From assembly GCA_001821055.1 (NCBI GenBank), contig MHRT01000005.1, positions 156,378 through 220,377 on the forward strand: 64,000 bases of DNA. Direction: 5' to 3'. Source of the stretch: Candidatus Taylorbacteria bacterium RIFCSPHIGHO2_12_FULL_45_16. Lineage in GTDB: Bacteria; Patescibacteriota; Minisyncoccia; Phycocordibacterales; PALSA-1337. Both the position numbers and the translations under genes were made by a program. This document shows positions 10,277 to 51,594 of the stretch, piece after piece. Positions within the stretch are counted from its first letter, which is position 1; each line of letters opens with the position of its first letter. The notes under the pieces were generated by a model. That model saw nothing but the letters and a program-made list of their open reading frames with translations. It was not told the origin of the DNA and did no database searches.

Positions 10277-10493
10277 AGAAGTAGCGTCTCACAAGGTGGT
10301 GCTCTCCAACTCAAGCCCCAGATACTCTGAGGGAACATCGGAGCGCCTCGTAAGTTATTATCGCATACTTCTGAGATAAGAATAACAAATGGGGCACACC
10401 GTGTGTCAACTAGACATGTGAATTACTTTTAATTTGTAATAAGATGCCTTGTGCAGGAGGCGAAGATTTGACAGAATAATTGCATTTAATATA

Positions 10494-42764: not shown

Positions 42765-42857
42765 GTAATTATTGGGCTAATGGTTAAATGCACGGATAAT
42801 TATATTATGTGATAAAAAAATGTCAAAATTTTGTAACATTACATGAGTCAAATTACT

Positions 42858-43028
42858 GGTAGCCCTACGGGGAATCGCCCGCGCCTCTCGCCTCGCCAGC
42901 TCGGCTCGGGCTGGGCACCGGCTCGCGGCCTCGCGTGCTCGCTCGACATCGCTCCGCCGTTCGATCCCCCAGTCGCAGGCACTCAAAGTGCCTGCTCGGT
43001 TTCTACTAATATTACCTACTTAAGTAAC
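42858..43028. repeat. Direct repeat DR-A (171 bp), beginning with the tRNA-Glu 3'-terminal 19-mer gtagccctacggggaatcg
   Basis: Matches 49179-49350 with about 2 substitutions and 1 indel. Contains the hairpin gcaggcactcaaagtgcctgc. Confidence 0.85.
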
Positions 43029-43036
43029 GTCACCGA

Positions 43037-43083
43037 GTAGGCAAATTGTAACATTCGCGCGAACTTTTTACGAGCAAAATTGA
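43037..43083. repeat. Inverted repeat IR-L (47 bp), partner at 49089-49135
   Basis: gtaggcaaattgtaacattcgcgcgaactttttacgagcaaaattga is the reverse complement of 49089-49135 with 1 mismatch. Confidence 0.85.
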
Positions 43084-43088
43084 AGTAC

Positions 43089-44126
43089 CGCCGCCCACAA
43101 TTTCACTGGGGGCGTGCGAGGGCGGCGGGACTACTGCCTCGGCGCTGAAAACTCGGGGGACTGGGGGCGAGTTTTCAGCGCCGTCCGCTTTTTTGGGGGC
43201 GGGGATGGTTTTAAATTTAAAATTAAAGCGCATACCATTGCTGATATGCGCTTTCCTTAGTCCACGTGACCGTGACCGAGTCTAGCAAAGCACGCTGAAC
43301 AGAACTCTAGCGCACTCGAATTAAAGAACAATGAAATTTTGGAGGGGGTTTTACCTCCCTCCCAGTACTCCACAGCAGACAAGAATGCGTTAGCGAGCTT
43401 GCACTCTACGCCACCGGAAAATGGTAACAATAAAAATTCTTAGACGAGCCCCTGTTTTATCAAGGGCTCGTCCCGTAGACTGCCGCAGTGCACTTGAGTC
43501 TAGCCAAGCAAACTACAGGACGCTTCGGCATGAACTGGTATGCAATACGACCAAATCTAACTGGAAATTTTTGCACGAGTGATTTTTAGGCCACTCGTGC
43601 TCCTTAGAGTGGCGTAGCCGAGTATACTGAAGGAAACCAGACTGCAGCGGACCTCAGAACGCGGGGCCAAACCGGAAAGAGTAACCGACCATACCCGAAG
43701 ATATGGTCGGTTCCGTAGACTGCCGCAGCAAACATTTGGCGCACTGCACGCAACGGCAGCGAAGCCCAGGCTGCGTCACTATCAAAATCATCTAAAAATA
43801 GATTAACATAGATATTATAAAAAGTAAAGCGTATACCATTTCTGATATACGCTTTCATTAGTGAACTGCACGACAGCACAGCCTACGATAGTAAGGCACA
43901 GCATAGTCGAGCGAACCACAAAATGACTACGAAATTATAGCTATAGCCAACTGGACCGAACCAAGATTACTAAACCCGAGAAATTTTTAGTAGGAGTGAT
44001 TTTTAGGCCACCCCTACTCCGTACTGAACCCTACTGCAGGAAGCGCTACGATGGAGAACTGCTCCAAGCGTCACAACTGCGTAGTGTCAGAAATTGTAGC
44101 CGACCCCACCCGAAGATGGGATCGGC
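43089..44126. repeat. ORF-free block of at least 10 stem-loops at ~83-165-nt spacing, in families sharing the loop and inner stem while the outer stem varies with compensatory changes
   Basis: H3 43225-43254 aaagcgcata-ccattgctg-atatgcgcttt pairs with H8 43826-43855 aaagcgtata-ccatttctg-atatacgcttt (c/g changed to t/a on both arms). H6 cacgagtg-atttttaggc-cactcgtg pairs with H9 gtaggagtg-atttttaggc-cacccctac. H7 ccgaccat-acccgaagat-atggtcgg pairs with H10 gccgacccc-acccgaagat-gggatcggc. Most hairpins are followed by CC-R-TA-N (ccgtagactgccgcag twice). Confidence 0.7.
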
Positions 44127-44200
44127 CCGTACTTTGCAGGAGGATACTGGAGCGAACGCGAGCTCAGCTAACTGAAGCATGCACCAGTGTACCCTGTAAA

Positions 44201-46018
44201 CTACTTTCCCTTTAACAGCTCCTCTGCTTGGGAAATGCACTCGTCAAATGTACGATCGTTGACGTATGCCTTTTCAAGCCATTTGGGAAGTGAAGCGTGG
44301 ACGAATCGCCGGAACTGTTGAGACATGAATATTGTCACTCCAAGGTCTTTGGTTGAACGAATGTTCCGACCGCGAACCTGAAGTGCCTGTATCATAACCC
44401 GCCAATTCCACAATGCCCAGCGACTACCACCGAATCGTTCCTCCTCAAACTGAGTGCCCGGATCGCTTGGATTCGGATACCCTGGACGCAGGAAGAAGAT
44501 GACTGGAGCAATCTGTTTGGGCAGATCGACCCCTTCGGCATAGTTTGAAGCTGTGCCGCAGAGGACATCGCCTTCACCATCACGGAAACGAACTGCCGCC
44601 TCCTTGGCGGTCACACCGTTCCCATAACTGATAGCTTTGAGGCCTTCCTCTTCCGCCATCATCATGAACTTATCGCGCTCGAGATTCGAGATGGTGACGA
44701 AGAGACTACGAATCCCTTTGTCTGCCAATCGCTTCGAGGCGCGAGCGACCATGCGAATACTTTTCGGAAGATCACGATTACTGCGTTCGTTCACTGCCAA
44801 GTTGGCTGTGTTCGTCGGCATGAAGAGCCGAGCATTGTCAGATGGAAAGTTGGATTCCAGACTGAATACCGGATTCCGTATCCCCGTCTCGTGCCCGAAT
44901 ACCTCCGGATCACCGATCGTAGCCGAGAGCGCCACCGTCGTCTTGCCCATGATCTTTTGGATAATTGGCGCGACGTAGTAACACTTGACCACCAGTCGAT
45001 ACTGCACATGCTCCTTTTCACCCTTTTCCTCCTTGTAATAGGCGTAGGTGTAGTTGAGCGCGTGGCGATTCTGATCAGGAAGTGAATACTCGAATGAGCG
45101 CAGGTAGCGGCGAAGGTCTTTCACCACAACCTCAAGCTTCTTCAGAGTCTCTCGCTTCTCCACGACATCAATGACTTTTTCCTGCACGGCCTTTTCAAGC
45201 TTGCGCAGGAGTCCTGATTGGTCGATGACCTCGAGTTTCTCCATGAGCGCACCAACCTCGCGTGCATTGAGCACGGTTTTCTGATGCGCCGGTTTCGACT
45301 TGATGATGTAGATCAACTTCTTGTAGAAGTCGTGAAGCAATTCTGCCTCCTCGGCGCCAATCTCTCGCAGAAGCTCCACCGACTTGCGCAAATGCCAATC
45401 GGTTATTTCATACGAGAGCGCGTTCCTGACCACTTCGGCCATGCGGTGTGCTTCGTCAATGACGAGCACTTCCGGCTGTTCCCATTCCCGGCTGAAAAGC
45501 TGGGTGAAGAGATAGAAAGCCATAGTGGAAAGAACAATGCCACCCTGTTTAGCCTCGAACTTCTGCTTCAAGTACGGACAAGGGATCGCTCCCTCGACAA
45601 AAGTCTTGCCTGTTGCTTGGTCCACTCTATGCGGGCAGTCTTTGAGCAGTGAGCATGGGATTTCATCCGCCATCGGCTGTTTGTCTGCCGGCAGTGTGTC
45701 CTTGAAGTAGTGACATTGATGCTCATTGCGCCCGAGAGCGACCTTGAGATCAGGAAACTCTTGGCGGATCTGCTCCATCAGAGTCTTGTTCGTTGTGATG
45801 AGGAAGAGCGGTTGTTTCCGCTTCAAATCCGCGGCCTTGAGTACGGTATACTCTACGGCAGTCTTGCCGCTTCCTGTGGGAGATTCGATCGTGACCGAGC
45901 CATTCTCGGAGATGATACGAAACATTTCCCGCTGACTTGCCCACGGTGCTCTGCGGAGAGCGTTTGTGGGGAATGTCTCTTCTAGCAGAGACAATTTTAG
46001 ATGTTCCAGATGTTGCAT
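44201..46018 (-). CDS. DinG/XPD(Rad3)-family Fe-S cluster DNA helicase
   Basis: Walker A ESPTGSGKTAVEY; four Cys between motifs I and II (HQCHYF, IPCSLLKDCPHR, IPCPYL); DEAH box VLVIDEAHRM; C-terminal helicase motifs (VLCGTASNYAEGVDLP…VIFFLRPGYP). The track ORF extends to 46087; the likely start is MQHLEHL at 46018. GC-rich codon usage. Confidence 0.7.
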   Translation of the reverse strand: MQHLEHLKLSLLEETFPTNALRRAPWASQREMFRIISENGSVTIESPTGSGKTAVEYTVLKAADLKRKQPLFLITTNKTLMEQIRQEFPDLKVALGRNEHQCHYFKDTLPADKQPMADEIPCSLLKDCPHRVDQATGKTFVEGAIPCPYLKQKFEAKQGGIVLSTMAFYLFTQLFSREWEQPEVLVIDEAHRMAEVVRNALSYEITDWHLRKSVELLREIGAEEAELLHDFYKKLIYIIKSKPAHQKTVLNAREVGALMEKLEVIDQSGLLRKLEKAVQEKVIDVVEKRETLKKLEVVVKDLRRYLRSFEYSLPDQNRHALNYTYAYYKEEKGEKEHVQYRLVVKCYYVAPIIQKIMGKTTVALSATIGDPEVFGHETGIRNPVFSLESNFPSDNARLFMPTNTANLAVNERSNRDLPKSIRMVARASKRLADKGIRSLFVTISNLERDKFMMMAEEEGLKAISYGNGVTAKEAAVRFRDGEGDVLCGTASNYAEGVDLPKQIAPVIFFLRPGYPNPSDPGTQFEEERFGGSRWALWNWRVMIQALQVRGRNIRSTKDLGVTIFMSQQFRRFVHASLPKWLEKAYVNDRTFDECISQAEELLKGK

Positions 46019-46032
46019 GTTTCCTTTCTTCT

Positions 46033-46377
46033 CTACTTTTTGTTGTCGATCCAAGCAACGAGCTTGAACCTGCCGATTCCTTCCCACTTGTCCGACCGAC
46101 CAAGCACGTTAGGTGCTCCTGTAGGAATAGTCGTGTTTTCCATGAGCTCGTATAGACGCCCGTGGAATATTGTTCTGAGTCCCGCTTTCACGGTCTCATT
46201 CGGCCTTCCCATAATCGGCAGATAGCGGAATGTTTTGTCCTGCGGATCATATTCGTTCTTTCGTTCAGGTATTAGATGAGCATATTTGTTCACACTCGTA
46301 TGATGTCCGCGTCTTGGTCTGTGATCCGACTTACGACGGAATCGTGGACCATAATGTGGATAGACTTTTTTACCCAT
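46033..46377 (-). CDS. Hypothetical basic protein (island cargo)
   Basis: 114-aa ORF with the SD-like AGGAGAA 9 nt upstream; Arg/His-rich N-terminus. No family recognised. Confidence 0.35.
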   Translation of the reverse strand: MGKKVYPHYGPRFRRKSDHRPRRGHHTSVNKYAHLIPERKNEYDPQDKTFRYLPIMGRPNETVKAGLRTIFHGRLYELMENTTIPTGAPNVLGRSDKWEGIGRFKLVAWIDNKK

Positions 46378-46666
46378 GAGAATATCCGTTCTCCTAAATT
46401 GTATTTGTTGTCAAAAAATCAAGCTTACTCGGCCTGATTCTGGCTTAGCTGTTAAGGGCTTTTCCATTTTTGATGCTAACATACAATAAGTAATCCGTCA
46501 ACTTGCGTAAAGGACCGTGTTCTGTTACGCTGTAATTACAAATGGCTTCGGCCTCGCCCCGCTCACGCGGGGAGGAAGAAATGAGCGATTATTCTATCAA
46601 ACGAATGATCGCTTGTTTTATTTTCTGAAACTGTTCCGAGTCAATGGTGGTGATTTTTTCCTGTAA

Positions 46667-46978
46667 TCACTTGGAGTCTACCAATCGAATTTGAGATAGA
46701 ATGATTTTTCGCGCTACCTTATCACCTAGATTAATATCCGCATAGTATTTTCCTTTTTTATTTTTTGTAGTAAGTGGCACAGATAAAAATACTTCTTTAT
46801 TGAAACCCTTGATGATTAGTACTGGGCGCGCAAAATCAAATCCTTTGCCATCCTGCTCAAATCCAACATTTTCTCCGAGAGAACACCACCAGATTTCTCG
46901 CTCATGATAAAATCGCCGCTCCTTTTCATTATGGATATTTTGCTTGAGTGTATGCCATTTTTGAAAATCTTTTTTCAT
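46667..46978 (-). CDS. MazF/PemK/Kid-like toxin-fold protein (mRNA interferase family); no adjacent antitoxin ORF found
   Basis: …REIWWCSLGENVGFEQDGKGFDFARPVLIIKG…FLSVPLTTKNKKGKYYADINLGDKVARKIILSQIRLVD matches MazF-like logic (RGDI…G.EQ.G.RP.LVL…P.T…….V…QIR.ID). 103 aa. Confidence 0.5.
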   Translation of the reverse strand: MKKDFQKWHTLKQNIHNEKERRFYHEREIWWCSLGENVGFEQDGKGFDFARPVLIIKGFNKEVFLSVPLTTKNKKGKYYADINLGDKVARKIILSQIRLVDSK

Positions 46979-47002
46979 CGTAGGATTTTAACATAAAAAA
47001 AT

Positions 47003-48030
47003 GGCAGGCACTCATTGAGAATGCCCGCCCCATAGAATAGGACTAGTCTGGATTAGTGCAGCCAACTCCGCGCAACTTCACGGCACTGTAGACTGAAATT
47101 TCAGACAAGGAACAAGATGGATAAATCTCGGCGGGGAATTTTCATTCCCCGCCCCGTAGACTGGTGAAGCGTGGTTTAGTACAGGCCAACAAGGAGAACA
47201 GAACTACACCTTACCGGATCAAATCACATGTTGAAACCATGACTCCTTCTGTAAAAAGTAAACGGTAGGAGAAAGTTGATGCTCTCTCCTACCCCTTGCG
47301 CAACCGCACCGCTCCCTAGAGTAGCCCACGGGAGGGCAGCTAACTCCAACAAACGATGGTGGAAATGTAAATTCTGCCGTGGAGTTTTACCTCCACGGCC
47401 CATACTCGAGTGCACAGCAGAGAGGAAAGACGCGCTAAGGCGAACTCCGGGCTGGTTTACACTAGAGAAAAGTTTGGCGGGAGTTTTACCTCCCAGCCCC
47501 ATACTTAGGCACGCGACCACTTCAGGCCACAGTGGGCTAGGCCAGGTCACACCACCCTAAATTTGTTTTAGTCTGAATTTAATATAACATACAAAGCTAA
47601 ATTATGCAAATTTAAAGCGCATACCATTGCTGATATGCGCTTTCCATAGAAGACCGATGTGAAGCTTGGCGCACCTCACTGAAGACAGCGGCACGCGACC
47701 AAGGGACACTACAACGGACTCGAAAAGAACAATTATGAAATTATGTCGCGGAGATATTTCACTCCGCGACCAATACTAAACGGCAGTGTAGTCTAGCCCA
47801 CTGCGGCTAACCGAGCTACACCGAGGTGTGCGCGAGACTGCCACAAAGAACAAACTGGAAAGTGAAAGAATGGCGGGGAATTTTCATTCCCCGCCCCGTA
47901 ACACAGATAACTAGAGTTGCAGAAAAGTCCACCACAGTCCGGGGAACAAAACCGCACCTTACGCGACCCTACGTTACGCAAAAAATCTGAAAATTATAGG
48001 CGGAGGTCAATCTTGCGATCAACCTCCGCC
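47003..48030. repeat. ORF-free block of degenerate ~100-138-bp tandem units (three intervals of exactly 127), each carrying one stem-loop
   Basis: Hairpin starts at 47003, 47130, 47264, 47376, 47476, 47614, 47745, 47872, 47999. ggcggggaat-tttc-attccccgcc is identical at 47130 and 47872. gccgtggag-ttttac-ctccacggc and ggcgggag-ttttac-ctcccagcc share loop and inner stem. aaagcgcata…tatgcgcttt at 47614 is a third copy of the array-1 H3 family. Units starting at 47130 and 47872 also share caccttacYg about 80 nt in. Confidence 0.7.
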
Positions 48031-48146
48031 CCACAGAGAAGCCCGGGACAGTTTAGTTCAGTATGCCCTAGTGAGCGACACGCGAGCTAAGACCAGATCA
48101 CCGAACTGCAAACCCTATTGACTCTGAAGGACGCGCGGACGGAAGG

Positions 48147-48839
48147 TCAGCTGGTCACGACTTCCGCGAGCCGATTGGCACCATTGCCCGACACCGGTGC
48201 TGACGCTTCGGTTTCCTCGGACTCTTCGGGTCTCGTGCCTTGCTTGTCCGATTCTTCCATCGTCACTTCCCATTTCTTGACCGCGAAACGGCCGAAGGGA
48301 CCGCCCTTGTTCGGACGGAAGTCACCGATGCCCGCTTTGGAGCCGGCGGTGTCCACAAGCTGGCGAATCAGAGTGTCTTTCGCTTGCTTGCCATCAACTT
48401 GGAAGGTCACATCGAGCGACCAATCCTTGAACTTCGGGCGGACGATGCAGACGGCGATGTCCATGCAGGTACCGCGACGCATGTCGGGTTCCCACGCAAT
48501 TTCGCCCTTGGCGTTGTTGTCCGCGAACGGCAGAAACTCTTCCTCAATGGAGAGGAACGAGTAGAGCAAGGTGCCCTCAGCAGTCGAAACCGCCTTCTTA
48601 CCGTCGAATTTGTGGAACCGACCAGCGGCTTTGATGGCCGCGAGCAGATTCAGTGTGGGAATGCCCATCGGCCCGGTGCTGTCGTTCTGGCGGTAGATCT
48701 TCGTAACAGCTTCCTGTTTTGGCGACAGATCTTTGGCCTTGGGCGCATGGACTTTGGTACGGAGACCTTCCAAGGTCGCCGGAGTCATGCGATTGATAAG
48801 GAGTGGGCTAATGCCCACGAGTAGTGCGCGTATTTTCAT
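48147..48839 (-). CDS. Hypothetical protein (island cargo), acidic C-terminal tail
   Basis: About 230-aa ORF; the likely start is MKIRALLVGISPLL at 48839, and the track ORF begins at 48884. GC-rich. No family recognised. Confidence 0.4.
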   Translation of the reverse strand: MKIRALLVGISPLLINRMTPATLEGLRTKVHAPKAKDLSPKQEAVTKIYRQNDSTGPMGIPTLNLLAAIKAAGRFHKFDGKKAVSTAEGTLLYSFLSIEEEFLPFADNNAKGEIAWEPDMRRGTCMDIAVCIVRPKFKDWSLDVTFQVDGKQAKDTLIRQLVDTAGSKAGIGDFRPNKGGPFGRFAVKKWEVTMEESDKQGTRPEESEETEASAPVSGNGANRLAEVVTS

Positions 48840-49088
48840 AACCTTACTTTCCGACTTTAGAGCAGAATCAATGATCCTGCTCAAGACGTTATTACCTTTG
48901 TTTTATGCTGTCAAAGAAAAGGCTTTGTTAAGCCCTATAAATAGGTCCACCCTAATTACAAAAAAAGGTTAGCACATTGATTTATTTGTGTCAATAGCAT
49001 GCTTGACAACTTTACTATTCTATTTGTATATATAAATACATATAAAGTACACTATTCACGGTCTAATGCGTGTCGGTACAGCGGGACA

Positions 49089-49135
49089 TCAATTTTGCTC
49101 GTAAAAAGTTCGCGTGAATGTTACAATTTGCCTAC
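49089..49135. repeat. Inverted repeat IR-R (partner of 43037-43083)
   Basis: tcaattttgctcgtaaaaagttcgcgtgaatgttacaatttgcctac. Confidence 0.85.
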
Positions 49136-49178
49136 CAACAAAAATGGCCTTCGCATTCGCTTAGGCTCATTTTTGTAT

Positions 49179-49350
49179 TGGTAGCCCTACGGGGAATCGC
49201 CCGCGCCTCTCGCCTCGCCAGCTCGGCTCGGGCTGGGCACCGGCTCGCGGCCTCGCGTGCTCGCTCGGCATCGCTCCGCCGTTCGATTCCCCAGTCGCAG
49301 GCACTCAAAGTGCCTGCTCGGTTTCTACTAATATTACCTACTTAAGTAAC
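49179..49350. repeat. Direct repeat DR-B (172 bp), immediately adjacent to tRNA-Glu
   Basis: See DR-A. Separated from the tRNA 3' end by only 10 nt (aacatctctc, 49351-49360). Confidence 0.85.
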
Positions 49351-49360
49351 ATCTCTCTCG

Positions 49361-49432
49361 TAGCCCTACGGGGAATCGAACCCCGATTACTGCCTTGAGA
49401 AGGCAATGTCCTAACCGTTAGACGATAGGGCC
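49361..49432 (-). tRNA. tRNA-Glu (anticodon CUC)
   Basis: Minus-strand read GGCCCTA-TC-GTCT-AACGGTTA-GGAC-A-TTGCC-TTCTCAA-GGCAG-TAAT-CGGGG-TTCGATT-CCCCG-TAGGGCT-A: cloverleaf with G1.U72, 7-nt T-loop TTCGATT, anticodon loop TTCTCAA. CCA not encoded. Confidence 0.8.
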
Positions 49433-49501: not shown

Positions 49502-50944
49502 CTACGCTTTCTCAAGCCATTCTTTCTCCTGACGGACCACCAACTGGTCGGCCTGATCAGGATATTTCATTAACATCTTTACAATGCGCTCCATCCGAAT
49601 CGACTGTGAACCCTTGATTAGAACTAGATCACCAGTTTTGATGATTGTTTTGAGAAATTCCCCAGCTTCAATAGAATTATCAAATGCGTGGACATTTCCA
49701 ACCACAAAACCATTCTTCACAGCCTCATCAGCCGTAGTGCGAGAGCGTTGTCCAACTGTTACAAGCACACTTGCCACACCGACAACTTCCCTACCGATCC
49801 GCCGGTGTTCTTCAGCCGAATAATGACCGAGTTCCATCATGTCACCCAGCGCAATGATTTTCGAACCATTAGTTTCCAATTCCTTCAAAGTATTCAAAGC
49901 TGAAATGACCGCATCTGGTGATGAATTGTAGCTATCATCGATCAACGTCGTATCGTAGGAGCCAGCAATTATATTCATTCTACTTTTCGGCGCTTCATAA
50001 TTATTGAGACCGTTAATGATTGCCGAGATCGGAACATCCTTTACTTTACCTACTGCGGCTGCTGCCAATAATGGATACATGTATGATCTACCAAGGAGGC
50101 CATTTATTGAAACTTGGGTACTCATTCCATTCAAATTCAATTTGAAAGTAAAGCCAGAAGGAATCTTTGTAGCCACAGCCAAACTGGTTGAATTCGAAGC
50201 TGAAACTGGAATAGAACTAGTCTGATTTGACTCTTCACTAGTCGAAATTGGCATAGAAATCGACTTTGAAATTGAAATTTGGGCTGTGGCCGAAACCGGC
50301 ACTTCTGCCAATTCATAAACAATTCTCTGTTCACTCCCCTTCACATCGGCCTTATTAATTGTTCCGAATGAAATGACTTTTACATCTTTATCCTTGACCA
50401 GTTCTCCAAGCAACAAAACTTTTTCATTATCAGCAAAAAGCACTAACGTCCCACCCTTTTTCACAGCCGTAGCAAGTGAAGCCTTCTCTTCAAAGACTTC
50501 TTTCGGTGATTTGAAAAACTCGACATGGACAGGGGTTGAACTGACTTGAGTGACTACGGCAATCTCCGGATGAAGCCATCTGGCTATTTTTCTAATATCA
50601 CCTGGATGATCAGCACCAATTTCCAAAACCAAACAGTCAGGATATTCATTCTTCCGGAAAATCAATCCGAGACCACATGAAATATTCCGAAGCCAACCCC
50701 ACAGACTATGCCAAGCATTTGGTACGCCGATAATAGTCAGGGGCAAACCGATTTCACTATTCAAACTCTTTTCACTTTTGCGAACATAATTACTCTGATT
50801 CTTGAGCACGCTATAAATAGCATCCTTGGTTGAAGTTTTCCCTACACTGCCAGTAACAGCTACTATAAAAGGCCTATACTTGGCCAGAATGAGTCGAGAT
50901 TCGAGAATCAGGATTGCTGCCAGGATTTTCTTGAAGAGAATCAT
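49502..50944 (-). CDS. murF: UDP-N-acetylmuramoyl-tripeptide--D-alanyl-D-alanine ligase with a Ser/Thr-rich low-complexity insertion
   Basis: VAVTGSVGKTSTKDAI P-loop and DDSYNSSPDAV (MurF-type). About 60-aa insert SATAQISISKSISMPISTSEESNQTSS…. Confidence 0.75.
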   Translation of the reverse strand: MILFKKILAAILILESRLILAKYRPFIVAVTGSVGKTSTKDAIYSVLKNQSNYVRKSEKSLNSEIGLPLTIIGVPNAWHSLWGWLRNISCGLGLIFRKNEYPDCLVLEIGADHPGDIRKIARWLHPEIAVVTQVSSTPVHVEFFKSPKEVFEEKASLATAVKKGGTLVLFADNEKVLLLGELVKDKDVKVISFGTINKADVKGSEQRIVYELAEVPVSATAQISISKSISMPISTSEESNQTSSIPVSASNSTSLAVATKIPSGFTFKLNLNGMSTQVSINGLLGRSYMYPLLAAAAVGKVKDVPISAIINGLNNYEAPKSRMNIIAGSYDTTLIDDSYNSSPDAVISALNTLKELETNGSKIIALGDMMELGHYSAEEHRRIGREVVGVASVLVTVGQRSRTTADEAVKNGFVVGNVHAFDNSIEAGEFLKTIIKTGDLVLIKGSQSIRMERIVKMLMKYPDQADQLVVRQEKEWLEKA

Positions 50945-51594
50945 TGTTTTAGTGATTTTATATCCCCAATCTTTTCACTTATTTTTTTAACAGATAAATT
51001 ATTAACCAACGATTCCATTTGAAAAATCGCTATTTTATTTAACTTCTGAAGCCGTATATTTTGTGAAATTTTCTGTGGAATAATGTGTTTCCTGATTGCA
51101 TCAGTATGAATTTTATAATTCACCTTGGCAAGTAGACGTTTCAAATCCCAACCAGTAGCTATTTTCTCGTTTTCTTCAATTTTTAGGCGTTGAAACTCTT
51201 TGATCAGATATAGTTCAAACTCGGGACTAATCCAGGAAGCAAATTCAAAAGCAATGTCCATATGGCCATAAGTTCCACCATATCGACCAGATTTTGAAAT
51301 AAGCCCGATTGCGGAGGTTTCATTTATCCATCTTTTTGGTGTTAAAGAAAAACTATTTAATCCCGCCTTATTTTTAAACCCATCGAATTCGATGGAATTA
51401 AAGGTTGGATTATGAATTCGTTCCCACAGACCAAGAAACTCTATTGTACTCCTTGTACGGATCCAGTTTTGCAAAATATAGTCAGTTTTTTCATTGTCTT
51501 TATAGCGAGCAATATCAGACAAAGAAATAAAGTCGCCTGCCAAATGAGACGTAAAGCCAATCGAGATATCCTGTACGACTATTTTTTTTATCAT
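50941..51594 (-). CDS. KilA-N domain-containing protein (phage/mobile-element-associated DNA-binding fold) embedded in the dcw cluster
   Basis: …RYGGTYGHMDIAFEFASWISPEFELYLIKEF… matches the KilA-N core (GTWVHPDLAIEFARWLSPEF). 217 aa with a C-terminal coiled-coil. Confidence 0.55.
   Translation of the reverse strand: MIKKIVVQDISIGFTSHLAGDFISLSDIARYKDNEKTDYILQNWIRTRSTIEFLGLWERIHNPTFNSIEFDGFKNKAGLNSFSLTPKRWINETSAIGLISKSGRYGGTYGHMDIAFEFASWISPEFELYLIKEFQRLKIEENEKIATGWDLKRLLAKVNYKIHTDAIRKHIIPQKISQNIRLQKLNKIAIFQMESLVNNLSVKKISEKIGDIKSLKQ

Follow-up and report, generated by a model that had tools for sequence, protein, structure and literature searches.

A solitary MazF-fold gene family of Patescibacteria with a predicted convergent antisense RNA gene, and its truncated copy within a VIPR element

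The MazF fold is familiar from the type II toxin-antitoxin modules MazEF and PemIK (Kid-Kis), in which the toxin is paired with the product of a MazE/PemI-type gene. In type I systems such as txpA/RatA and bsrG/SR4 of Bacillus subtilis, the toxin is a small hydrophobic peptide and its partner is an antisense RNA that overlaps the 3′ end of the toxin gene. Type III systems (ToxIN and AbiQ) combine a ribonuclease (RNase) toxin with an RNA partner encoded upstream as an array of short, identical repeats. Solo toxin homologs are also common and possibly have other roles (Makarova et al., 2009, PMC2701414). One solitary member, MazF-mx of Myxococcus xanthus, has no adjacent mazE and is reported to be controlled by the trans-encoded transcription factor MrpC (PMC4803016). 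The gene considered here is a solitary MazF/PemK-family gene at positions 46667-46978 (minus strand) of a stretch of 64,000 nucleotides (nt) from Candidatus Taylorbacteria bacterium RIFCSPHIGHO2_12_FULL_45_16 (contig MHRT01000005.1, positions 156,378 to 220,377); the whole stretch is referred to as the window, and positions are counted from its first letter. Its surroundings belong to another kind of system, Viral Interference Programmable Repeat (VIPR), which is composed of a RAMP protein, guide RNAs named vrRNAs, and an accessory gene, and which represses transcription of DNA targets (bioRxiv 10.64898/2026.04.26.720920).

The window gene and its relatives resemble the type II toxins in fold and family, as seen in the match to PF02452, the MazF profile, the conserved Arg and Thr, and the top 50 Foldseek matches. 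They differ in lacking a neighboring MazE/PemI-type gene, which holds for this locus and for 83 others, in an extra N-terminal helix of about 25 amino acids (aa), and, for the window copy, in the loss of the last strand and C-terminal helix. With txpA/RatA and bsrG/SR4 they share a convergent small RNA (sRNA) gene that has its own strong promoter and intrinsic terminator and whose 3′ part lies over the end of the toxin open reading frame (ORF). By computation, the defining feature of type I, a cis-encoded antisense RNA gene overlapping the toxin, is present at 78 of 80 loci, although the toxin here is a 129-aa MazF-fold RNase rather than a small hydrophobic peptide and the RNA is a predicted one. 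MazF-mx is likewise a solitary MazF gene, but its companion is MrpC acting in trans, whereas the companion here is a conserved, cis-encoded antisense RNA gene.

The MazF gene and its solitary family

The ORF at 46667-46978 has an ATG start and encodes 103 aa. Its assignment to the MazF/Kid pattern in the preliminary description, which was made from the sequence alone, is borne out by a match to Pfam PemK_toxin (PF02452; 30.6 bits, above the cutoff of 23.1; E = 4.2e-7; profile positions 3-83 of 109), by a match to phrog_9567, a "MazF-like growth inhibitor" (E = 1e-13), and by a family profile that aligns, across residues 28-124, with the MazF chains of B. subtilis and S. aureus (E of about 5e-6). 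R51 in "RPVLII" is aligned to R25 of B. subtilis MazF and T70 in "PLTT" to T48, which are catalytic-site residues. Both are kept in the window ORF; across the family R51 never varies, and conservation of T70 and T71 reaches at least 90%. PADLOC and NCBIfam returned no match for the MazF gene, for a neighboring 114-aa ORF, or for the Vipr protein of the same island.

The 103 aa first given as the product length describe an ORF that exists but not the natural length of the protein. A search of 5.8 billion proteins gave 1389 relatives, nearly all of 128-131 aa, and in the alignment the window protein ends just where these go on with "RLxxKxxxIxxxQFxxIKxAIxxLIx." Translation across the stop in the same frame reads "...VDSK*LQEKITTIDSEQFQKIKQAIIRLIE*," so that an in-frame remnant of 25 codons (LQEKITTIDSEQFQKIKQAIIRLIE) and a TAA occupy 46589-46666 (minus strand), in agreement with the homolog alignment. 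The TGA at 46667-46669 takes the place of the codon for Arg104, a residue invariant in 75 family members, and the window product consequently lacks the last strand and the C-terminal helix. In the AlphaFold2 (AF2) model of the full-length homolog P0004 (129 aa, 77% identical to the window protein; mean predicted local distance difference test score, pLDDT, of 83), these correspond to E105-111 and H114-128, both beyond residue 103; the additional N-terminal helix is seen in the same model. The full-length homolog thus has the SH3-like barrel with C-terminal helix of the MazF/Kid/CcdB type. The top 50 Foldseek matches of the model in the PDB are all MazF, with no ToxN chain among them; together with the lack of a PADLOC match, this speaks against a toxin of the ToxN/AbiQ family, the comparison first suggested.

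Detailed counts for the family are taken from a scan of one genome per species, which gave at least 435 loci, and refer to the best 80 of these, almost all of them labelled Patescibacteria. An ORF of at least 125 aa is present in all 80 that could be scored, none being truncated like the window copy. A set of 83 loci comprises these 80 and three others, and 3 of the 83 gave no ORF call. An alternative genetic code in which TGA is read as an amino acid was considered and ruled out, since TGA ends 6 of the 33 ORFs of at least 200 aa in the host genome and long ORFs are intact under table 11, although low-level read-through of the window TGA may occur. Judged by sequence, the window gene is a bona fide MazF-family gene and a nonsense-truncated allele of the 129-aa family. 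Its 103-aa product is probably inactive, and the earlier idea of a non-toxic MazF-fold protein is plausible for this truncated copy.

The truncated allele is not confined to the window. The same TGA allele recurs on two other contigs, L001 and L002, and the window MazF allele is found in many samples and in two deposited genomes. Two variants, P0002 and P0003, are identical to the window protein in their C-terminal half, TGA included, and differ over the first ~45 residues, a pattern that indicates recombination within the MazF gene.

No antitoxin-sized ORF adjoins the window gene on the same strand in the ORF list of the window. The preliminary description was right on this point; the downstream interval in which it saw no small ORF (46378-46666) holds the remainder of the MazF ORF and a predicted antisense sRNA gene. 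Full-length family members occur inside polysaccharide and ABC-transporter operons, with gaps to the flanking genes as small as ~40-80 nt, and members wedged in this way leave no room for a partner gene. Same-strand ORFs of 40-140 aa lying no more than 250 nt from the gene were collected from the 83 loci, and clustering of the 130 small neighbor ORFs so obtained revealed no recurrent cluster that could represent a protein antitoxin. Just three clusters had two members, and these were ribosomal protein S10, what looks by eye like read-through of tRNA genes, and translation of the sRNA element itself (L049/L052). Neither the 113-aa ORF upstream of the gene in L001 nor the 114-aa ORF of the window has a Pfam match. 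The MazF family is genuinely solitary, a conserved protein partner being absent from the 83 loci. In CPR (candidate phyla radiation) polysaccharide and ABC-transporter operons of L009-L013, a second, longer solitary PemK-family gene of 147-162 aa (e.g., L009 4550-4993) lies ~1.2 kb from the 129-aa gene.

A predicted convergent antisense RNA unit at the toxin 3′ end

The region that follows the MazF stop codon contains a conserved motif, composed of a hairpin with a variable stem, GAGGCCGAAGCC, and then RTTTGTA..AGTATAGCA..GTCAA. The motif lies 18-43 nt past the stop codon in 77 of 84 loci, is found in none of the upstream flanks used as controls, and is conserved far better than the MazF protein. 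Its opposite strand has the form of a complete small transcription unit, with a promoter, three hairpins, and a terminator. The promoter consensus is TTGACA-N16/17-TGnTATAnT, followed after 12 nt by GGCTTCGGCC. Of 76 loci, 58 have TTGACA or TTGACT as their −35 hexamer, TATACT and TATAAT are the commonest −10 hexamers, and the number of consensus matches averages 9.9 of 12 (family range 7-12). The distance from the end of the −10 hexamer to the cUUCGg hairpin element is exactly 12 nt in 67 of the 76. A transcript from this promoter would begin 5-8 nt upstream of GGCUUCGGCC and would finish at the U-run after hairpin 3. By the U-run rule the predicted RNAs have a median length of 80 nt (range 50-113), with most of the well-formed ones at 85-95 nt. 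Each has three hairpins, and the median folding z-score is −4.25, with z below −2 in 87%.

The three hairpins are constrained in different ways. Hairpin 1 is GGC-UUCG-GCC with a cUUCGg tetraloop, and two loci carry a compensated GCCUUCGGGC variant. Hairpin 2 is free in sequence and kept in structure: its stem reaches at least 6 bp in 83% of loci, compared to 12% of shuffles, and 64 distinct sequences occur among the 76 loci. Hairpin 3 precedes the U-run, and its loop and stem straddle the toxin stop codon. RNAalifold, run on an alignment that had been fitted to no structure, recovers hairpin 3, in which 10 of the 11 pairs show compensatory double changes. Within this helix 91.1% of cells are paired, as opposed to 68.8% after shuffling (none of 500 shuffles reaches the observed value) and 34-60% when the columns are slid by 1-3. 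Cells changed on both sides number 138, against 50 in shuffles and 17-44 in slid columns, and the covariation score is 0.64, against 0.22 and 0.12-0.22, respectively.

The antisense strand is taken to be the transcribed one because of the way the promoter points, the U-run that follows hairpin 3, the strand of the tetraloop, the excess of G-U pairs, and the lower folding energy. The tetraloop reads UUCG on the antisense strand and CGAA on the other; the antisense helix of hairpin 3 contains 47 G-U pairs vs. 11 A-C pairs; and the antisense strand is the more stably folded of the two in 56 of 76 loci (p = 2e-6). A covariance model, R1, was built from 38 sequences. In 78 of the 80 species loci it matches the antisense strand where the MazF stop codon lies; it also matches at the stop codons of two extra, more divergent paralogs (L062 and L094), and gives no match in 548 kb of Vipr control loci. 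Across the family, these alignments show a conserved, covarying, putative RNA gene that converges on the 3′ end of MazF. The initial proposal of an orphan toxin with an RNA antitoxin had placed that RNA in the adjacent array; the array does not fill this role, while the proposal in its general form gains support from the convergent gene.

Rfam, searched at gathering thresholds, gave nothing for the MazF 3′ region or for the arrays of the window; with an E limit of 10 only sub-threshold matches appeared, far under the gathering scores (best E ~0.08-0.09). A literature search found no description of the 3′ sRNA element or of a type I-like antisense partner for a MazF-fold toxin. Two further candidates were rejected. 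The 5′ motif of the sRNA has four matches in viral contigs, all in coding regions that lack a promoter, hairpins, and a MazF neighbor, and these are attributed to chance. A peptide encoded on the antisense RNA (in the window, GGAGG-N6-ATG and then MSDYSIKRMIACFIF) was discarded, as its start is not conserved in the other alignment loci inspected by eye.

Some additional observations concern the distribution and sequence of the unit. In several loci, L062 and L094 among them, the 129-aa family is represented by two paralogs, and each of these is accompanied by a separate antisense sRNA. R1 also matches at three sites where no MazF-family ORF of at least 60 aa ends, namely L045 2252-2337 (minus strand; 53 bits), L010 1835-1920, and L013 965-1049 (both ~27 bits), possible remnants of toxin genes since lost. 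The sRNA linker of one clade (window positions 46570-46582, plus strand, and the homologous positions) reads GGAGGAAAA, which resembles a Shine-Dalgarno (SD) sequence; this is not a family-wide feature. The 3′ untranslated region (UTR) of the toxin mRNA in the same clade hence carries the anti-SD sequence UUUUCCUCC, which recalls the fold-back inhibition elements of hok-type mRNAs.

In the window itself, R1 has a single match, at 46536-46619 on the plus strand (79.3 bits, E = 5e-25). The predicted convergent antisense sRNA extends over 46536-46624, as delimited by R1, RNAfold, a terminator scan, and the family covariation. Its body is intact (RNAfold dG −36.9, z −5.9). The cUUCGg core of hairpin 1 lies at 46544-46553, the variable hairpin 2 at approximately 46555-46573, and hairpin 3, the terminator with its U-run, at 46578-46619, where it spans the true MazF stop codon (46589-46591); the terminator was also found independently by a consensus scan. 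The site orthologous to the family promoter (46503-46531, plus strand) reads TTGCGT-17-TACGCT, and its −10 hexamer ends 12 nt before the cUUCGg core. It has 6 of 12 consensus matches, a score read by eye at positions set by the 12-nt spacing, and thus falls below the family range. The scan detected no promoter with at least 9 of 12 matches on the plus strand. Both the toxin and the sRNA promoter of the window module therefore look decayed. Past the sRNA unit, a promoter-like TTGACG-17-TAGCAT with an upstream TG (46473-46501, minus strand) faces the 114-aa ORF and a helicase gene.

Proposed mechanism and competing readings

It is proposed that a strong sigma-70-type promoter at the 3′ end of the toxin gene would fire back into the gene, producing an RNA of ~85-95 nt that is fully complementary to the toxin mRNA over its 3′ end and 3′ UTR. 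Pairing would cover at least the terminator region of ~40 nt, and as much as ~90 nt should the mRNA read through. The RNA could then lower toxin expression in the manner of txpA/RatA and bsrG/SR4, acting as a type I-like antitoxin or repressor, whether by mRNA destabilization, translational control, or interference from convergent transcription. In the window, the low-GC module of toxin and sRNA would have entered a VIPR element at tRNA-Glu, taking a place between one vrRNA array and the helicase gene, and would since have begun to decay, with TGA at Arg104 and the weakest sRNA promoter of the family. We infer that the sRNA is transcribed, that the family is toxic, and that the RNA neutralizes it. 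The account as a whole, in which a solitary MazF-fold toxin family has a type I-like antisense RNA and the window copy is decaying VIPR cargo, is considered probable. Its boldest component, that MazF-fold toxins throughout the Patescibacteria are neutralized by a dedicated cis-antisense sRNA in place of a protein, is put forward tentatively, with a chance somewhat short of even; such a module would be the first type I-like one with a MazF toxin.

Several points weigh against this account. The sRNA, its two ends, and its promoter are all predicted features, and the toxicity of the MazF family is a supposition. In the window, the automated hexamer search chose a pair other than the orthologous site (TAAAGG-17-TGTAAT, 7 of 12 matches). 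The count of G-U pairs in minimum free energy structures is equal on both strands (118 vs. 118). One arm of the terminator lies in coding sequence, and the hairpin could work in both directions, terminating the toxin mRNA as well. A pure antisense mechanism does not call for the near-invariant 5′ sequence, which could instead reflect protein binding. A single TGA allele is found in three contexts with differing N-terminal halves, and the truncated form could thus be tolerated or even used. In addition, most of the type I toxins described are small membrane peptides, and none is known to have the MazF fold.

The alternative that survives best, while still unlikely, is that the family represents a non-toxic or housekeeping MazF-fold RNase, whose 3′ element combines a bidirectional terminator with an outward-insulating promoter, and that the window copy is a pseudogene. 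Members do reside inside housekeeping operons, the window copy does carry a nonsense mutation, and solo toxin homologs are common and may serve other functions (Makarova et al., 2009, PMC2701414). What is seen is nevertheless a complete sRNA gene, with a near-consensus promoter that faces into the MazF gene, a capped hairpin at a fixed 12 nt from it, and a terminator ~85 nt further on, and this gene travels with the ORF into unrelated contexts and with paralogs. The conservation of the catalytic Arg and Thr also speaks against a housekeeping function of this kind.

Slightly less probable again is that the conserved 3′ RNA binds the MazF-like protein directly, as an inhibitor or a substrate decoy, which would be a type III-like mechanism in a convergent layout. 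The sites bound by MazF proteins are short and single-stranded (for example, ACA and UACAU), and ACAAAYGGCUUCGGCC is nearly invariant across very divergent hosts in which the toxin is only ~50-60% identical, a degree of conservation that antisense pairing has no need of. The needs of the promoter, of the initial transcribed sequence, and of a stabilizing UUCG hairpin at the 5′ end could, however, also account for this invariance. The compensated GCCUUCGGGC variant of two loci suggests that structure is the conserved feature, and the RNA shows none of the tandem repetition of known type III antitoxins. An antisense RNA acting on the toxin mRNA is retained as the preferred reading.

The VIPR island and what the module may mean

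The MazF module lies in a VIPR island of ~6.1 kb (43037-49135) bounded by 55-nt terminal inverted repeats (43037-43091 and 49081-49135). Outside these are 178-nt direct repeats (42854-43031 and 49176-49353) that are 98% identical and that each open with a 22-nt copy of the 3′ end of tRNA-Glu; the tRNA-Glu gene itself (49360-49432) adjoins the island. The GC content of the island is 50-58%, as compared to ~40% for the host, whereas the MazF module is just 35-38% GC. No integrase or transposase gene was found inside the element. A related element, L019, likewise abuts tRNA-like 3′ ends.

The identity of the island follows from a 245-aa protein encoded at 48147-48884 (minus strand), for which profile, motif, and AF2 evidence agree. 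It has no Pfam match. Its family profile matches PDB chain 36pp_D, "SUSP1 Vipr protein," along the full length (E = 5e-16, residues 1-189), it carries a G-loop motif, GIGDFRPxKGGPFGRF, and the top folds matched by its AF2 model (pLDDT 83) are Cas7 and Csm3. The gene is accompanied by two hairpin arrays on the minus strand. Array 2 (46997-48130) has nine units of ~100-140 nt and lies upstream of the MazF gene, as the preliminary description stated, this gene being on the minus strand; array 1 (43200-44200) has eight units and lies beyond the helicase gene. VIPR vrRNAs are ~100 nt long and contain 9-16 five-nucleotide repeats followed by a structured 3′ tail, the repeats being YNNGG, or NNNGG, YNNNG, or NNNNG in other types (bioRxiv 10.64898/2026.04.26.720920). 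The 17 units of the window have TNNNS five-nucleotide repeats in their bodies and a hairpin as 3′ tail. In the 60 nt upstream of each hairpin, the TNNNS periodicity gives a summed Kullback-Leibler divergence of 0.49, compared to 0.044 ± 0.017 (maximum 0.12) in 1000 shuffles. The signal appears only at periods 5 and 10, not at 3, 4, 6, or 7, and is absent from the helicase coding sequence. Both hairpin arrays are, from this evidence, vrRNA arrays of a VIPR system.

The helicase gene (44201-46018, minus strand; 605 aa) encodes a DinG/XPD-like protein with matches to Pfam DEAD, ResIII, DEAD_2, and Helicase_C_2 and to PADLOC typeIV_DinG (E = 4e-43). Homologs with 40-58% identity occur downstream of vipr, past a non-coding array, in 27 of 85 Vipr loci. 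The accessory gene of VIPR types III-V is a nuclease or a helicase (bioRxiv 10.64898/2026.04.26.720920), and on the basis of Pfam, PADLOC, and synteny this gene is the probable VIPR accessory (vap) gene. The 114-aa ORF between the MazF module and the helicase gene (46033-46377, minus strand) is an ORFan with 3 homologs among 5.8 billion proteins and with no Pfam, NCBIfam, PADLOC, or PHROG match. L001 carries this ORF; L002 lacks it, and there the MazF module directly precedes a helicase-like start.

In its integrated mobile element, its Vipr homolog, its arrays of ~100-130-nt RNAs with five-nucleotide repeats and a tail hairpin, and its helicase accessory, the island resembles described VIPR loci. 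It departs from them in its repeats, TNNNS rather than YNNGG, which resemble the YNNNG alternative (bioRxiv 10.64898/2026.04.26.720920), and in the MazF module and 114-aa ORFan as extra cargo. Neither a MazF-family gene nor the 114-aa ORF occurs in any of the 85 related Vipr loci, and MazF is accordingly regarded as passenger cargo. The contigs of the closest Vipr relatives, P0122 and P0123, end inside the array and so give no exact insertion point for the cargo. Scans of viral contigs for close relatives of Vipr and the helicase returned nothing. In two related loci (L020 1584-2301 and L019 1051-1740), each vrRNA unit follows a TTGAGAAA...TAAAAT-like box and ends in a hairpin and a U-rich run, a layout which suggests that each guide RNA may be an independent transcription unit rather than part of a processed array.

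The setting raises the question of control in trans, either by a protein antitoxin encoded elsewhere or by VIPR repression through a vrRNA. MazF-mx with MrpC is a precedent for a solitary MazF gene controlled in this way (PMC4803016), and repression of transcription is what VIPR does to its DNA targets. On the other hand, the MazF family is found in hundreds of genomes that lack VIPR. In the 64-kb window, no vrRNA target scored above shuffles, self-matches aside, under 20 gapped pairing rules (five choices of variable position by four skip lengths), the true rule for TNNNS-type repeats being unpublished. Trans control is held to be very improbable, the search for a partner in trans having covered the 64 kb of the window.

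The weakest explanation is the one first offered, a type III-like system in which the upstream hairpin array would be a ToxI-like RNA processed by, and inhibiting, the MazF-fold protein. The likeness to ToxIN and AbiQ is evident: an RNase toxin, a suspected RNA partner, and an array directly upstream on the same strand, with a terminator-like hairpin and T-run (47029-47003) before the ATG. The hairpin and T-run do exist, but they are merely the last vrRNA tail of array 2, which together with ATTTTTTTAT forms a terminator just upstream of the MazF ATG. This explanation is nearly negligible, as the array units are vrRNAs with five-nucleotide periodicity, variable bodies, promoter-like boxes of their own, and a Vipr protein alongside, not short, identical ToxI-like repeats; as another such array is located past the helicase gene; as the 27 helicase-type VIPR loci have arrays without MazF, in keeping with the lack of a MazF gene in all 85; as L001 and L002 carry the same MazF allele with no array upstream (a 113-aa ORF in the former, a surface-protein gene in the latter); and as none of the 83 other MazF-family loci has such an array and the fold is that of MazF, not ToxN.

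An 18-nt inverted repeat (46945-46962 and 46997-47014, 16 of 18 positions complementary) brackets the MazF start codon and pairs the last vrRNA tail and its U-run with MazF codons 6-11. Similarity between the window and L001 begins at 46998, at this repeat, which could mark a junction left by recombination or form a structure that blocks translation. Elsewhere in the window, a KilA-N domain protein encoded beside murF (50941-51594, minus strand) matches PADLOC PDC-S22, a candidate defense family (E = 4.6e-87), and also PHROGs of phage transcriptional regulators. A DUF3800-V RNA of Rfam lies at 10277-10372 (minus strand; 76.7 bits, above its gathering score).

For the window, the result removes a false lead: the arrays are VIPR guide RNAs, and MazF is best understood as a decaying passenger in a VIPR element of Candidatus Taylorbacteria. 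For the family, this one whole group of solo MazF genes, with at least 435 species-representative loci, appears to carry a covarying antisense RNA gene, which turns an RNA antitoxin into a testable hypothesis. Should it prove correct, types I and II would be less sharply divided, and one large class of "orphan" toxin genes would be explained. It would also allow better annotation of genes that are now labelled "type II toxin" and whose RNA is unannotated, and it would add a new class of sRNA to the CPR bacteria, in which regulatory RNAs are almost unknown.

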